From: a phage
Strand: one strand, 5' to 3'
DNA: 64,000 nt
Sequence record: PZ179883.1
The notes beneath the pieces were generated by a model. That model saw only the letters and a program-made list of their open reading frames with translations, had not been told where the DNA came from and searched no databases. This document shows, piece by piece, positions 5,305-51,370 of the stretch (position 1 is the first letter of the stretch; every line of letters begins with the position of its first letter). A program made the translations under genes and the position numbers.

Positions 5305-5360
5305 TTGTATAGTACCACGGAAGAACAGGGATGTAAACCATTTTGTGAAAAAATTTTTAA
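5305..5360 (-). promoter_or_regulatory. T4-type early promoter (TTTACA-N17-TACTAT with A/T-rich UP element)
   Basis: Minus strand -35 at about 5332-5337, -10 at about 5309-5314; upstream of the small secreted-protein gene. Confidence 0.6.
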
Positions 5361-5426
5361 TGAATTCCAGAGGTCCAGAATCATCTATTTTTCCTAAGTA
5401 TAGATTTATATTACTTGTATGAAAAA

Positions 5427-5442
5427 GGGACCCGGAGGTCCC
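5427..5442 (-). terminator. GC-rich tetraloop hairpin followed by a T-run (terminator/RNA stabiliser)
   Basis: gggacc-cgga-ggtccc with T-run on the minus strand; just 3-prime of gene 43. Confidence 0.55.
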
Positions 5443-5455
5443 TAGATTTATTCTA

Positions 5456-8152
5456 TCAGCCAAACAGGAAGTCTAACGAAGCTTTTTCCTCATAGTCCAT
5501 ACCCGCCGATTCACACATACCCGCAAGCGGTTTAACAAACGATTTTTGGAACAAAGTTGAGTAGTCAATCCAAGACAGTACATCAGAACGAATTTCTTTT
5601 GGAAGTTCCGTACCCGATGGCCAAGCAATGCACTTGTCACCAAATGGATTTCCCTCACGTAATGGAAGAACCATTACCTTATTTCCATCCAAAATTGGAG
5701 CTACACCTAAACCGCTAACAGCTCGACGATAAGTTAGCACCCCACGAATGTGGAACGGGCATTTAAATCCTGGCCAACCTTTATCGTCATATTTCGCTAT
5801 ATCGTTCGCAGTTTTTACTTCAGCAATAACTTTATAGTCAAGTTGACGATATTCTTTCTCAAAGTTCTTATAGTATTCTTGGACAGACTCTTCACCTTCC
5901 TGAAGAATGCGACGAATACTTTCTTCGAGAGCTTCTTGTACTGCTTTTGGTGTTGAACTCTGCTGAGTTTCCATACCCATGATTTTTAGATGTGGTTCAG
6001 CAAATCGTTTATCTTCCATATCATAAACGTTCAGAGCATAACGTTTTTTCGCTTTCCAAAATCCACCAACACCCTTTGAACCAAGCGGAGGACAAGAAAT
6101 AGCTTCACGGTCCATATGCATCAGATGCTCGCGGTTATTCATATAATCACATAACTCACGATATGCAACATCAATCATAGGTTCCATCTTTTTCTTACCA
6201 AACTGATTCATGAATTCAACTAAATCATTTTGTTCTTTAAAGCGATCAAGACCTACTTTTTCAATAACTTTATCTACACAAACATATACCGAATCAGTAT
6301 CACCCGCTGCGATGAAATCTTCGCCATTAGTTCCACACACCTTATTCAAGTATTCATTAATTTTACGAGCAATCCACTGAATACCAACTTGACCAAAAAT
6401 TGTGATAGCAGTAGCATTTCGCAAATCATAATAACGGAAATGAATATTACCAAGAGCACCATAAAGACTGTTGATAAGAATTTTACGGTTTAGCTGATTT
6501 GTGTTAGCAAGAGTAGCTGCTTTTTCACATTCTTCAATCAGACTATTAAGAACAGATTCGGTGTAATTCGATAATTCATTTAAGAAATCATCATTGAACT
6601 TAACATATCGTTCAACTTCTGGTTTAGTTGAACAAGACCCTGCACCTTTCATAATAATCTTTTTAATAGCTTCGGCATTCATTTCTTCGGCGAACATTTT
6701 CTTTTTCCAATCTTTACGCTGGAAAAATACTTTAGCGATTTCCTTTGGAATGATACCTTCTTGGTGCTTATCATACATCCATCCATTCGGAGAGCAAGAA
6801 TATTCATCACTTGGCTTAGGAGCTGTTCCTGCGATGTATTCATGAATTGGATGAACTTTGAACTGACCACGAATAGTTTCAGGACTAATGTTAACCTGAC
6901 GAATAATGCTAGGATACAGAGACGTCAAGTCAAAACTCATAATGTATCGACGGGCAATCGCTTTAGGTTCAAACACAAATGCACCTGGAAAACTTTGTTT
7001 AACGTGCGAACCTTGTTGAGGAATAACCTTGTGTTCACCTTTCAATGAGTTAAAAATAATAGCATCCCAAGTTTTAATAGGACTCATTACACCAGAAAAA
7101 GGCATTTTAGCGTAATAAGACATACTTAAAACTAGATCGATAAACCCACGAATTTTATCAATTGCTTGAACTGATTCTACGTCAATGATGTTATAACTAA
7201 TGTATCGTTGATGATTAGTCTCACGAAGTTTATTAATAGGACCGTCGTATGGTAATTTACCTTTTTTGGTTTCATGTTGAGCAACTGATTCCAAAGAGAA
7301 TGATGGCAAATTAGTAAATGCGAATTTTTTGTACAAATCTAAATAATCAAGAATAGATACGCCATCAATAGAATAAATTTCTTTGCTACCGTACATATTT
7401 TGAATTAGTTTAGATTTTACTCGACCGATTGGGGAGAAGCGTTTCATACTGCGTTCGCCCAGAACCATTTTAACGCGATTCATGATATACGGAACGTCAA
7501 ATCCCTCAATATTCCAACCGGTAAAAATAGCAGGTCGTTTCTGTTCCCAGAGATTAATATATTCCATGAGCATATCACGCTCATTATCAAATGGCATATA
7601 AATTACTCGGTCAAGAATTTCTTGAGGAACTTCATCACCACCTTCACAGTCAAGCTTAGCAGCTAACTTTGCATCCCATTTTGATACTGAACCGTACATT
7701 GAATTCAAAAGGTCGAAAACATAAAAACGATCATCAATTGAATCGTAATGAGTGATAGCATCAATTTCATATTCAGCTTTCATTGGGTCAGGAAATTTAT
7801 CACCAGTAACCTCAATGTCACAGTTAGCTACACGAACAAATTTTCGGTCATAAACAATTTCTGAACCATACGTATCACTGATATAAGCGAGTTTAAAATC
7901 GTTCATACCGAGAGCTTCGAGACCGATGTCTTCCATTCGCTTCATCCAATCTCGAGCATCTTTCATTGATGGAAATTTTTGAGGAGCGCAGTTTTTACCG
8001 TAGATGTCTTTGTATTTTGACTCTTCCTTACAATGCCTAAACATAGTTGGAAGATATTCTACTTCACGAGTACGTTCCTTTCCGTTTTCATCAATATAAC
8101 GTTCAACAATATTATTTCCGACTGTTTCGATAGAGATATAAAATTCTTTCAT
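5456..8152 (-). CDS. 43: DNA polymerase gp43 (family B)
   Basis: 898 aa, T4 gp43 length; exonuclease and polymerase motifs (for example DTDS); preceded by the gp43 translational operator hairpin. Confidence 0.97.
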   Translation of the reverse strand: MKEFYISIETVGNNIVERYIDENGKERTREVEYLPTMFRHCKEESKYKDIYGKNCAPQKFPSMKDARDWMKRMEDIGLEALGMNDFKLAYISDTYGSEIVYDRKFVRVANCDIEVTGDKFPDPMKAEYEIDAITHYDSIDDRFYVFDLLNSMYGSVSKWDAKLAAKLDCEGGDEVPQEILDRVIYMPFDNERDMLMEYINLWEQKRPAIFTGWNIEGFDVPYIMNRVKMVLGERSMKRFSPIGRVKSKLIQNMYGSKEIYSIDGVSILDYLDLYKKFAFTNLPSFSLESVAQHETKKGKLPYDGPINKLRETNHQRYISYNIIDVESVQAIDKIRGFIDLVLSMSYYAKMPFSGVMSPIKTWDAIIFNSLKGEHKVIPQQGSHVKQSFPGAFVFEPKAIARRYIMSFDLTSLYPSIIRQVNISPETIRGQFKVHPIHEYIAGTAPKPSDEYSCSPNGWMYDKHQEGIIPKEIAKVFFQRKDWKKKMFAEEMNAEAIKKIIMKGAGSCSTKPEVERYVKFNDDFLNELSNYTESVLNSLIEECEKAATLANTNQLNRKILINSLYGALGNIHFRYYDLRNATAITIFGQVGIQWIARKINEYLNKVCGTNGEDFIAAGDTDSVYVCVDKVIEKVGLDRFKEQNDLVEFMNQFGKKKMEPMIDVAYRELCDYMNNREHLMHMDREAISCPPLGSKGVGGFWKAKKRYALNVYDMEDKRFAEPHLKIMGMETQQSSTPKAVQEALEESIRRILQEGEESVQEYYKNFEKEYRQLDYKVIAEVKTANDIAKYDDKGWPGFKCPFHIRGVLTYRRAVSGLGVAPILDGNKVMVLPLREGNPFGDKCIAWPSGTELPKEIRSDVLSWIDYSTLFQKSFVKPLAGMCESAGMDYEEKASLDFLFG

Positions 8153-8192
8153 AGATATTCCTTAGTTTATAGCCCGAGTTATTAGGCTCTTG
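8153..8192 (-). promoter_or_regulatory. Gene 43 translational operator (autoregulatory gp43-binding hairpin plus Shine-Dalgarno)
   Basis: Minus strand reads GAGCC-UAAUAACU-CGGGCU then AUAAACUAAGGAAUAUCUAUG, the classic T4 gp43 operator hairpin and loop. Confidence 0.85.
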
Positions 8193-8210
8193 ATATATTA
8201 TACTCCAAAT

Positions 8211-8228
8211 AAGGGGCCGAAGCCCCTT
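8211..8228 (-). terminator. C(UUCG)G tetraloop hairpin between regA and 43
   Basis: Minus-strand RNA GGGGC-UUCG-GCCCC. Confidence 0.6.
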
Positions 8229-8230
8229 GC

Positions 8231-50414: not shown

Positions 50415-50416
50415 TA

Positions 50417-50815
50417 TCAGCCTTCATCAACAATAGTGTGAGTATTAGCATTTACGATTTGCCACCAATCAAAGCGATTAGAATCCATCGGTTTGTTTTC
50501 ATTTTCTTTGATAATGTCACGGAGTTCATCTTCAGAGAATGCTTTAGCAATTAAATCGGTATACCCACCACGGGGATAATAATTATCACCTGCAAACAAA
50601 AGGAAATTTACCTTCCCGGAAGCAACATATGCTTCCTTAGGATACTTGTTTCCTGCGTGGTCAACCACTTCAATATAACGGTAAGGAATATCGGTTCTTT
50701 CAACCCATTGCCATGCCGCCGCAGGGGAATCGAAAGCATCTACACCTAAACGATTATCTTCATCTTTAGACGGATTATTTTCGTAATCCGCATATACATA
50801 ATATTCAACGTTCAT
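50417..50815 (-). CDS. Hypothetical acidic protein
   Basis: 132 aa ORF. Confidence 0.4.
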   Translation of the reverse strand: MNVEYYVYADYENNPSKDEDNRLGVDAFDSPAAAWQWVERTDIPYRYIEVVDHAGNKYPKEAYVASGKVNFLLFAGDNYYPRGGYTDLIAKAFSEDELRDIIKENENKPMDSNRFDWWQIVNANTHTIVDEG

Positions 50816-51000
50816 TATTCACCTTTAGAAATTTTATCCATAACAATAGCAATTAAACCAATTAAAAATGCTACTACAAGTGAAAACACATTTTCTGCTG
50901 TAGTCAATAATCCACATATAAATCCAACAAACATTGAAAAACTAAAAGCGGAAGCAGAAATTGCAATAGCAACATTTCGAATTAATTCACAACGTTTCAT
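50815..51000 (-). CDS. Small membrane protein
   Basis: 61 aa with two hydrophobic helices; own early promoter upstream. Confidence 0.4.
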   Translation of the reverse strand: MKRCELIRNVAIAISASAFSFSMFVGFICGLLTTAENVFSLVVAFLIGLIAIVMDKISKGE

Positions 51001-51024
51001 TTTATTCTCCTCAGTAGTAGATAG

Positions 51025-51060
51025 GGTAATAGTATCACTACCCTATCTAAAAGTAAACTT
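51025..51060 (-). promoter_or_regulatory. T4-type early promoter
   Basis: TTTACT N17 TACTAT; upstream of the small membrane protein. Confidence 0.55.
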
Positions 51061-51292
51061 ATTTTTTACGAAAAATTGATTTATTTTCTGCTGCCCATTT
51101 TTCAATAACTGCAGCAGGACCAGTAACAACAATTTTATCACCGTAATCTTCTGCGGCGAGTTGACCGAAATTATCTAATGCATCACGAAGAACTCCATGA
51201 GGCATTTCACCCATTTTATCTTTCTTGCCAGTGTAAATAAACTCAACTTTTACATCAGCAGTTTCAGCAATAAATTCTTGGTAAGTTTTCAT
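51059..51292 (-). CDS. Internal protein at the IPI locus, divergent from T4 IPI
   Basis: Internal start MKTYQEFIAE (exact T4 leader) followed by sequence unlike T4 IPI as I recall it; adjacent to 57B as ipI is in T4. Confidence 0.6.
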   Translation of the reverse strand: MKTYQEFIAETADVKVEFIYTGKKDKMGEMPHGVLRDALDNFGQLAAEDYGDKIVVTGPAAVIEKWAAENKSIFRKK

Positions 51293-51322
51293 TTTGATTT
51301 CCATTTGGTTTTGTTTTGATAG

Positions 51323-51370
51323 GGTAATAGTATCACAACTAAAACCCTATGTAAACAACTTTGTGAAATT
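51323..51370 (-). promoter_or_regulatory. T4-type early promoter upstream of the IPI-locus gene
   Basis: TTTACA N17 TACTAT. Confidence 0.6.

Follow-up and report, generated by a model that had tools for sequence, protein, structure and literature searches.

Early promoters with two stem-loop arrangements in a 64-kb stretch of a T4-like phage

Early promoters between the leftward genes

The DNA analysed here is a 64-kb stretch of phage sequence record PZ179883.1 (hereafter the window; 35% G+C, 65% A+T), and the subject is a family of repeated promoter modules, with their stem-loops, between its leftward genes. Megablast placed the window within Tequatrovirus, the top relatives being 97-98% identical with variation by region and no record being identical to it, and it is colinear with T4 21,623-87,158 at ~95% identity (blocks 86-98%). 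By gene calls transferred from T4, the minus strand carries genes 41 through 4 as far as 54,742, and the late baseplate genes 53, 5, 6, 7 and 8 follow on the other strand, beginning at 54,790. It is highly probable that 14 repeats on the minus strand are sigma-70 early promoters (Pe) of a T4-like phage, packaged as promoter early stem-loop (PeSL) cassettes with two stem-loop forms.

A first-pass annotation, made from the letters alone, had counted at least 12 copies of TTTACA-N17-TA(C/T)TAT on the minus strand between 5305 and 51370. The exact motif has seven matches in the window, each of them intergenic and in minus-strand orientation (expected number 0.13; none of 100 shuffles reached seven), and no further match appeared in the window when the spacer was widened to 16-18 nt. 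With one mismatch allowed, there were 14 matches on the minus strand (11 intergenic) and three on the plus strand (none intergenic). Sites were also scored with a two-block position weight matrix (PWM), consisting of a -35 block and an extended -10 block, with leave-one-out scoring and 50 shuffled sequences as control. The scores were bimodal: 14 minus-strand intergenic sites scored 19.5-28.9 (leave-one-out at least 13.7), while the runner-up reached 14.2, the best site over the 50 shuffles 17.8 and plus-strand sites at most 14.2, and no site of this class was found in the plus-strand late region. The span (first core at 5309, last at 51327-51355) and the strand had been given correctly, but the number of copies is valid for the looser consensus only, because the exact motif gives seven and the PWM 14. 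In neither coding DNA nor the plus strand is the motif as common as it is between the leftward genes.

All 14 sites share the consensus G-TTTAC(A/T/G)-N17-TA(C/T)(T/A)(A/G)T, with a spacer of exactly 17 nt and a G before TTTAC in every case, and TGn before the -10 box at 13 of them. The A/T-rich upstream element of the first-pass annotation is also present (78% A+T in the 30 nt above the -35 box, compared with 65% window-wide), and each module has a Shine-Dalgarno (SD) sequence and a start codon, the next start codon lying 22-71 nt downstream of the core. Similarity between modules is even longer than the 25-40 bp of near-identical core initially described (5296-5370 and 46340-46414 are 89% identical over 75 nt, 31350-31401 and 51310-51361 are 81% identical over 52 nt), and the spacers of the 5309 and 46353 modules agree at 15 of 17 positions. 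The canonical TTGACA-N16-18-TANNAT was rejected as the relevant consensus (1 match, 1.5 expected), and so was an initial PWM (73 positions, low pseudocount), which was overfitted and left no non-seed site able to score.

When the PWM was applied to T4, 15 sites were found in the interval homologous to the window, and all T4 early regions fetched gave 28 sites, every one of them on the minus strand. T4 early 5' ends have been placed at 27,044 (Pe26.4), 35,662 (Pe35.3) and 41,225 (Pe40.4), and a further promoter is named Pe57954 (PMC6024815). A note of the T4 RefSeq record names Pe133295, apart from which the RefSeq and GenBank records of T4 hold no promoter features, and a Pe table was not found in the supplements of PMC6024815. 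The predicted T4 -10 boxes end at 27,051, 57,961 and 133,302, which is exactly 7 nt before the 5' ends 27,044, 57,954 and 133,295, and the window counterparts of Pe26.4 and Pe57954 are the modules at 5309 and 34622. The regB promoter, likewise a positional orthologue, has been termed 'a typical early promoter' (PMC3014915), and T4 early promoters are described as being of the UP/-35/TGn/-10 type with extra conserved regions (Hinton 2010, PMC2988021). The window sites have the same UP-like region, -35 GTTTAC, 17-nt spacer, TGn and -10 TAnnAT, lie on the same leftward strand upstream of early genes, and show no essential difference from the T4 promoters. At the level of individual loci, the window has a single promoter that T4 does not have, at the nrdC.10/11 junction, lacks the ipIII and e.6 promoters of T4, and carries a different allele of the denV promoter. 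The assignment to T4-type early promoters made in the first-pass annotation is therefore borne out by the consensus elements, the early-gene strand and positions orthologous to mapped T4 promoters; it is a correct re-identification of a known element, not new biology.

An origin of the matches by chance in A+T-rich intergenic DNA is refuted. The 65% A+T of the window would favour it, as would a generic scan for sigma-70 promoters with terminators, which was discarded as uninformative in such DNA (99 found, 86.9 expected in shuffles), but the seven exact matches against 0.13 expected, the 14 sites above every shuffled and plus-strand site, the invariant 17-nt spacing and the orthology with mapped T4 promoters leave it virtually no probability.

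Two weaker matches lie within genes on the minus strand, at 13930-13958 in gene 47 (TTTACA-N17-TATAGT) and at 18917-18945 in 55.5 (TTTACA-N17-TATAAT). Because they are the orthologues of the mapped T4 promoters Pe35.3 and Pe40.4, respectively (predicted starts 13923 and 18910), genuine early promoters occur inside coding DNA, and outside the high-scoring family, at two places at least.

As sigma-70 early promoters, the 14 sites would combine an A/T-rich UP-like region, G-TTTAC(A/T), a 17-nt spacer, TGn and TA(C/T)(T/A)(A/G)T, with a start predicted 7 nt past the -10 box, usually at the A of AUC, and unmodified host RNA polymerase would transcribe the leftward early genes from them right after infection. 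It weighs against this assignment that the transcription starts in the window are placed by T4 orthology and not by transcripts of this phage. Modules were classed as tight when the upstream stop codon lies 0-13 nt from the -35 box and as loose when it lies 38-157 nt away; five modules (5309, 19362, 31847, 35412 and 46353) are loose and the other nine are tight. The cores, with starts predicted by the T4-orthology rule (-10 + 7 nt), are as follows.

5309..5337, minus strand: promoter core, orthologue of T4 Pe26.4, loose; exact motif, PWM 28.4; predicted start ~5302
19362..19390, minus strand: promoter core upstream of 55.6 (T4 orthologue start 41,670), loose; exact motif; predicted start ~19355
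26950..26978, minus strand: promoter core upstream of nrdC.4 (T4 orthologue 50,944), tight; PWM 24.7; predicted start ~26943
29925..29953, minus strand: promoter core upstream of nrdC.8, tight; exact motif; predicted start ~29918
31367..31395, minus strand: promoter core upstream of nrdC.10, tight; exact motif; predicted start ~31360
31847..31875, minus strand: promoter core upstream of the 49-aa open reading frame (ORF) 31660..31809, loose; exact motif; predicted start ~31840
34622..34650, minus strand: promoter core upstream of mobD.2, orthologue of T4 Pe57954, tight; predicted start 34615
35412..35440, minus strand: promoter core upstream of mobD.5 (T4 start 58,744), loose; predicted start ~35405
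39624..39652, minus strand: promoter core of regB (T4 start 62,761), tight; predicted start ~39617
42240..42268, minus strand: promoter core of denV, tight; in T4 another allele pairs in the same way; predicted start ~42233
46016..46044, minus strand: promoter core upstream of e.6, tight; predicted start ~46009
46353..46381, minus strand: promoter core of e.8 (T4 start 70,660), loose; exact motif; predicted start 46346
51029..51057, minus strand: promoter core upstream of trna.4 (T4 start 73,536), tight; predicted start ~51022
51327..51355, minus strand: promoter core upstream of gene 51059..51304, tight; exact motif; predicted start ~51320

The 5309 promoter drives a 78-aa ORF (5038..5274), which is absent from T4, and then imm.1; the product (MKIVYGCLAACLVALAAVPF...) has a signal- or lipoprotein-like N-terminus and no Pfam match. 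The 31367 promoter is a paralogue of the T4 frd.1-proximal promoter (start 146,107), the 31847 promoter is both the orthologue of the T4 nrdC.10 promoter (start 55,348) and a paralogue of the T4 frd.3 promoter, and the 46016 promoter is orthologous to the promoter of T4 e.7, a gene absent from the window.

Translation through the modules lengthens two ORFs. As the first-pass annotation had proposed, the NFFTK-FTSLFF-GTIQLST peptide is an artefact: ORFs 5038..5463 and 46046..46429 share KNFFTK(W/L)FTSLFF(R/H)GTIQLST (72% identity over 36 residues), which is a translation of promoter DNA and precedes the real Met codons (Met64 and Met41, respectively).

5275..5463, minus strand: phantom N-terminal extension (translated hairpin, promoter and leader); the real coding sequence is 5038..5274
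46310..46429, minus strand: phantom N-terminal extension; the real coding sequence is e.8, 46046..46309

Another pair of minus-strand sites, 52805-52833 (upstream of gene 1) and 1999-2027 (upstream of uvsX), is 79% identical over 39 nt. They have a MotA-box-like element (aaTGCTTCA and aaTGCCTAA) ~12 nt ahead of tgtTATAAT and, from these letters, look like middle promoters.

Stem-loops upstream of and within the promoters

The promoters had been described as lying often directly downstream of a UUCG or GNRA hairpin, in a terminator-then-promoter arrangement. There are eight UUCG-loop hairpins on the transcript strand (at 8211, 10156, 14868, 16138, 18509, 31906, 35457 and 45327), and such a hairpin lies within 30 nt above a promoter at only two of the 14 sites (31847 and 35412), both times with a U-run. 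Three more promoters (5309, 19362 and 46353) have non-UUCG hairpins with U-rich tails 80-130 nt upstream, and no GNRA loop was found beside any of the 14 promoters in the search for transcript-strand hairpins. The hairpin part of the description thus stands for UUCG at two promoters, or at five if any hairpin within 130 nt is counted, and falls for GNRA; the terminator-then-promoter arrangement applies to 5/14 modules, all of them loose (four in one scan, the fifth in a separate hairpin search), and the remaining nine have no upstream hairpin. The five upstream hairpins are as follows.

5426..5443, minus strand: terminator-like hairpin AGGGACCUCCGGGUCCCU followed by UUUU, UCCG loop, 88 nt above the 5309 promoter and directly after the gene 43 stop; conserved in T4
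19471..19485, minus strand: hairpin GGGCCCUCUGGGCCU with a U-rich tail, UCU loop, 80 nt above the 19362 promoter
31906..31925, minus strand: UUCG-loop terminator AGGGAGCCUUCGGGCUCCCU followed by UUUUU, 30 nt above the 31847 promoter; identical in T4
35457..35474, minus strand: UUCG-loop terminator AGUCUCCUUCGGGAGACU followed by UUUUU, 16 nt above the 35412 promoter
46512..46530, minus strand: hairpin CCCUAUCUAAAUGAUAGGG followed by CUUUUU, UAAAU loop, 130 nt above the 46353 promoter; it follows ORF 46539..47102

The upstream hairpins with U-runs are consistent with termination. In this first form, found where there is room between genes (5/14), a G+C-rich hairpin with a U-run 16-130 nt upstream would be expected to stop or trim transcripts coming from upstream.

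When the modules were folded from the -35 box to past the start codon, the spacer was found to be complementary to the early leader in many of them, with the -10 box in the loop or the stem, a feature that the first-pass annotation had not noted. Such an embedded helix, called at z <= -1.5 against dinucleotide shuffles, is present in 8/9 tight and 0/5 loose modules (Fisher p = 0.003), and all eight have z <= -3.4. No tight module has an upstream hairpin; eight of the nine have 0-4 nt between the upstream stop codon and the -35 box, and the ninth has 13 nt. In this second form (stop abutting the -35 box, 9/14, eight of them with a helix in the promoter), the spacer would pair with the first 10-25 nt of the leader.

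~29900-29944, minus strand: 15-bp embedded helix of the nrdC.8 module, spacer paired with the leader including the SD GGAGGA (z -4.4, -5.4)
31361-31387, minus strand: 12-bp helix across the -10 box of the 31367 module
34609-34644, minus strand: 15-bp helix across the -10 box of the 34622 module
~39601-39647, minus strand: embedded helix of the regB module, spacer paired with the SD AAGAGGAGAA
~42216-42263, minus strand: 10-bp embedded helix of the denV module, UUCCUCCAAG paired with CUUGGAGGAA, SD covered
46010-46037, minus strand: 11-bp helix across the -10 box of the 46016 module
51018-51049, minus strand: 14-bp helix across the -10 box of the 51029 module
~51319-51350, minus strand: 7-bp helix across the -10 box of the 51327 module
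26954-26971, minus strand: small in-spacer hairpin of the 26950 module, not significant (z = -0.6); the upstream stop TAG abuts the -35 box

The pairing between spacer and leader was examined in 68 distinct modules, which were taken from the window, from T4 and from contigs of IMG/VR. The duplex of a module's own spacer with its own leader had a mean of -11.4 kcal/mol, compared with -6.2 for shuffled spacers and -6.4 for dissimilar non-self spacers, and 40% of the modules reached -12 kcal/mol or lower, compared with 3-4% in the shuffled and non-self controls. Two unrelated promoter alleles exist at each of nrdC.8, regB and denV, and the spacer pairs with the SD in both alleles of each gene (the second nrdC.8 allele occurs in other phages; the second regB allele, in L010 and L014 of our locus numbering, was met at loci retrieved for different genes, and a scan of viral contigs for regB promoters themselves gave only 2 loci).

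nrdC.8 alleles, spacer with SD arm: CTGTTCCTC with GAGGAACAG; CTCCAGTAG with CTACTGGAG
regB alleles, spacer with SD arm: TTTCCTCTTgACTG with CAGTtAAGAGGA; TCTCCTCTAGTTG with CAACTAGAGGAGA
denV alleles, spacer with SD arm: window TTCCTCCAAG with CTTGGAGGAA; T4 TCTCCTGTAG with CTACAGGAGA

In a register-matched alignment of nine sequences, a 10-bp helix was 98.9% paired (slid controls 32-59%), with two pairs changed on both sides (U-A to A-U and G-C to C-G) and one wobble. The helix was more stable in the sense than in the antisense strand in 17 modules and less stable in one, which is due to G-U pairs (28/389); this strand bias mildly favours a role of the helix at the RNA level. No U-run was found after the embedded helices (tails AAAAUG, UAACAUG, AUUAUG, GCCAAGG and AUCAAAAC), so they are not canonical terminators.

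The 13 T4 promoters outside the region homologous to the window gave a similar picture, with a helix in 6/8 tight and 2/5 loose modules and upstream terminators at 4/5 loose and 0/8 tight ones. Several points weigh against a strict division of the two forms and against the strength of these comparisons. The tight/loose split is not significant in the 13-locus T4 set alone (p = 0.25), and there are exceptions to it, namely T4 20,073 (tight, no helix) and T4 130,274 (loose, helix). In addition, the 68 modules include orthologues, which are not independent, so the p-values of the duplex and the sense/antisense comparisons are inflated and have to be read as optimistic.

The two forms can be set beside the published PeSL element, an AT-rich region with an early promoter, a stem-loop and SD/ATG in the descriptions given in PMC4122927 and PMC2839356. 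The window sites fit the consensus TTTACW-N17-TAYWAT reported for T4/PST (Comeau et al. 2014, PMC4122927), and the passages that define the element show the same composite, with variable small ORFs adjoining and conserved linkers around different cargo. Its stem-loop part is an upstream hairpin with a T-run in five window modules and an embedded helix in eight; 26950 has its in-spacer hairpin only. Each promoter would then be packaged with one stem-loop and with an SD and start codon 25-70 nt downstream, as in the published composite. Relative to the -10 box, PeSL stem-loops can be upstream, internal or overlapping, as in the window, and those between or overlapping the -35 and -10 boxes are among the ones listed by Arbiol et al. 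2010 (PMC2839356). In the account of T4/PST (PMC4122927), by contrast, the stem-loops lie just upstream of the promoter, which is the case for 5/14 in the window, beside eight in-promoter helices. The portions of the PeSL papers that deal with function treat the stem-loops as terminators, whereas several window stem-loops include the SD and the embedded ones have no U-run.

The other six UUCG hairpins stand alone, between genes of the replication cluster and elsewhere.

8211-8228, 10156-10177, 14868-14887, 16138-16157, 18509-18524, 45327-45348, minus strand: stand-alone UUCG hairpins

Because they have neither a U-run nor an adjoining early promoter, they probably serve RNA stability or processing and not termination. 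Hairpins with C(UUCG)G tetraloops were reportedly found in T4 intercistronic regions by Tuerk and colleagues in 1988; the GGGCUUCGGCCC-type hairpins at these six positions are likewise intergenic, and only the UUCG hairpins with U-runs, 31906 and 35457, differ from that family in belonging to promoter cassettes. GNRA hairpins were rejected as parts of the modules: the two GAAA-loop hairpins (47197-47220 and 47754-47777, minus strand) lie 815 and 1372 nt from the next promoter. They are an identical 24 nt, AGCCCCGACCGAAAGGUUGGGGCU, followed by UUUU, 557 nt apart and within 40-nt repeats that are 93% identical. The listed ORF 47228..47878 crosses the second of them into a region homologous to T4 rnaC/rnaD, and its N-terminal part is probably another phantom.

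Possible roles of the embedded helix

Only RNA initiated upstream can form the embedded helix, because a local start, 7 nt after the -10 box, leaves out the 5' arm. By partition-function folding, the probability that the SD is unpaired was 0.00 in read-through RNA at nrdC.8, regB, e.8 and denV, compared with 0.75, 0.94, 0.84 and 0.37, respectively, in the local transcript. The 3' arm would hold the SD at these four genes. The prediction is that their read-through RNA is translated poorly, or only through coupling, and that RNA from the local start is more open, clearly at nrdC.8, regB and e.8 and only partly at denV. In T4, the SD is closed in read-through RNA at 8/28 promoters and is free in the local transcript at six of those eight. 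At one T4 locus (predicted start 8,182; L028), the helix between spacer and SD is among the strongest (-22.9 kcal/mol), and the SD is unpaired with probability 0.02 in read-through and 0.92 in local RNA; we take this early promoter, at 8.18 kb, to be the well-studied P8.1.

From these results we tentatively propose that about a quarter to a third of T-even early promoters could be sensors of transcript origin, in which the spacer encodes an anti-SD arm, and that the embedded helix could be a space-saving alternative to a terminator where genes abut. Under this proposal, RNA derived from upstream would hide the next ribosome-binding site (RBS) together with its RegB target GGAG, and RNA born at the promoter would expose the RBS. 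RNA structure is known to shield GGAG from RegB, and in T4 the genes e, soc, 49 and I-TevI have a late promoter inside an RBS-sequestering hairpin, these four being the only genes listed (Uzan & Miller 2010, PMC3014915). The window modules are similar in having the promoter within the helix and the SD in its 3' arm, with the long transcript closed and the proximal one open, here by folding. The four T4 genes use late promoters, which delays their expression, whereas the internal promoter here is early, and translation is therefore predicted to be confined to the immediate-early transcript. A helix that hides the SD at early promoters was not found described in the T4 reviews (the older Liebig & Ruger 1989 and Miller 2003 being outside the scope). 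The embedded and sometimes SD-covering helix, with its complementarity to the upstream terminators, is the only part of the present findings that may add something to what is known. It counts against gating as the general role of the helices that the SD is occluded by folding at only 4/14 modules (nrdC.8, regB, denV and e.8); at the other ten it is not, and the other embedded helices leave it free.

The embedded helices could instead be transcription attenuators, or protectors of the 3' end of the upstream message, and not translational gates. In the experiments described by Arbiol et al. 2010 (PMC2839356), one PeSL stem-loop cut downstream lacZ about as strongly as rrnB T1, and attenuation or protection of 3' ends is the reading given there for stem-loops of the RB49/phi1 elements; many T4 RNA 3' ends are also thought to be stable ends, not termination sites (PMC6024815). 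Within the window, embedded helices and upstream terminators are mutually exclusive, as if they were interchangeable, and the helices of 5/9 tight modules leave the SD free. Against these observations stand the missing U-runs and the placement of the SD in the 3' arm in both unrelated alleles of three genes, which a pure terminator or 3'-end role does not require. We rate this explanation as rather unlikely.

A second alternative is that the spacer-SD helix enforces translational coupling, in that the SD of read-through RNA would open only once the ribosome that completes the upstream gene has melted the 5' arm. Such coupling is possible because the stop codon abuts the promoter in tight modules, and at denV and regB the 5' arm starts 8-10 nt past the stop, near the reach that a terminating ribosome has by its footprint. 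At nrdC.8, however, the arm starts ~12 nt past the stop and forms 15 bp, of which a terminating ribosome would open few, and we hold coupling to be improbable as the explanation, more so than attenuation.

Promoter cassettes and the exchange of accessory genes

The first-pass annotation had further proposed that the modules are recombination sites that shuffle accessory genes, and that homologous modules should be sought beside different genes in relatives. Such a case was found: two modules, P_A (93.5% over 62 nt) and P_B (89% over 66 nt), flank frd.3 and frd.2 at 146 kb in T4, and in the window they flank the unrelated orf31660 (a 49-aa ORFan) and orf31400 (a DUF4031 protein) at the nrdC.10/11 junction. 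A module of the denV type precedes other genes in L006, L008 and L027, and T4 Pe26.4 has its best window match in the e.8 promoter (3 mismatches in 46 nt), above the window's own promoter at the imm.1 locus.

Between the window and T4, there are 12 non-endonuclease differences, five of which have a breakpoint in a module, with the junctions at module edges in the alignments. At nrdC.10/11, a 494-bp insertion lies between promoters 31847 and 31367, with its edges at +10 of one and at the SD of the next. A 240-bp insertion (ORF 5038..5274) lies between Pe26.4 and imm.1, where homology ends at the ATG, and at the e.6/e.7 junction homology stops directly past the repeat that spans the -10 box. The e.7 difference was rejected as a clean promoter-to-promoter deletion, as 48 unique nt lie between the e.7-type promoter and the e.6 leader. 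The nrdC.10/11 slot has at least three alleles: the window cassette occurs in 137/544 records, KMB22 has a different 67-aa ORF, and the slot is empty in records such as T6 and RB32 and in T4. The insertion between imm.1 and 43 occurs in 320/523 related records.

With such cassettes, the 50-75 nt of similarity between modules would offer homology patches for the insertion, loss and swap of accessory genes among T-even phages. Small cargo between conserved regulatory linkers that ensure expression is likewise found in integron cassettes and phage 'morons', the analogy drawn in the discussion of Arbiol 2010. Unlike integron cassettes, the window modules have no integrase or attC-type site, and exchange is presumed to proceed through the general recombination machinery of T4.

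Two results weigh against the modules as preferred sites of exchange. Modules hold more breakpoints than expected when all positions serve as the reference (p = 1e-4), but not when the reference is non-coding DNA, with 6/24 observed and 18% expected (p = 0.26). In experimental evolution of T4, amplifications and deletions occurred at arbitrary microhomologies of 6-10 bp (PMC9391042). Indels can therefore arise without promoter cassettes, and this study was set aside as direct evidence for promoter-mediated recombination. The proposed recombination role therefore keeps its support from one module pair with different cargo but gains none from breakpoint positions relative to non-coding DNA; a shuffling role is plausible and illustrated qualitatively, while statistically it is not separable from the indels being intergenic.

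The likeness of the cassettes could also reflect a constraint shared by strong promoters, with no part in recombination, the indels lying next to them as both are intergenic. The loss of enrichment against the non-coding null and the ready rearrangement of T4 at microhomologies speak for it, as do the extra consensus regions noted for T4 early promoters in the Hinton review (PMC2988021) and the six endonuclease or intron gains and losses between the window and T4, with 0/10 breakpoints in promoter modules. On the other hand, the similarity reaches positions that the polymerase does not read (the 15/17 spacer positions of 5309 and 46353, within 89% identity over 75 nt), one module pair flanks unrelated cargo at two loci, 5/12 non-endonuclease events have the end of T4 homology within a module or at its edge, and a T4 promoter is nearer to a window paralogue than to the promoter of its own locus. 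Constraint by itself is, in our view, a doubtful account.

The remaining differences from T4 concern gene content. The window is without T4 mobB, mobC, the nrdD intron with I-TevII, mobD, and segC/5.3, and segA and beta-gt of T4 are replaced by a 280-aa ORF (2023..2865) and a seg-like gene (2862..3503).

16078-16103, 20577-20597, 21873-21876, 32941-33904, 57617-57622, 1933-3502: sites of endonuclease/intron-type difference from T4

In the place of T4 ipII and ipIII, there is a 93-aa gene (42271-42552, minus strand), the N-terminus of which resembles T4 internal proteins; its ATG overlaps, as ATGA, the stop of the lysozyme gene e, and the 93-aa gene lacks its own promoter. The homology of most relatives stops exactly at 42554, and at 42248 inside the denV promoter. 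T4 ipI is replaced by an internal-protein-like 81-aa gene (51059..51304, minus strand, start MKTYQEFIAE), and T4 homology returns within its first 15 codons and within the flanking promoters. The interval between gene 49 and pin (22882-23136) holds ~210 nt of extra non-coding DNA, compared with 41 nt in T4, and includes an A+T-rich 10-bp hairpin (22888-22912) and a degenerate promoter-like site, TTTACA-N18-TACCCT (22908-22937), which is possibly a decayed cassette. The tRNA cluster (48452-49401, minus strand) has 10 genes, Asn, Tyr and Met included, compared with eight in T4, and one call (48532-48613) has an undetermined anticodon.

For the annotation of this phage, the promoter family fixes 14 transcription units with predicted starts, corrects two over-long ORFs and flags variable slots for accessory genes. 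The embedded helix would bear on how the packed early genes of T-even phages are controlled independently, and on the design of reporters and engineering sites in T4-like therapeutic phages. If the proposal of transcript-origin sensing is true, the principle known from e, soc, 49 and I-TevI would be extended from a few late genes to a general insulation of early genes.

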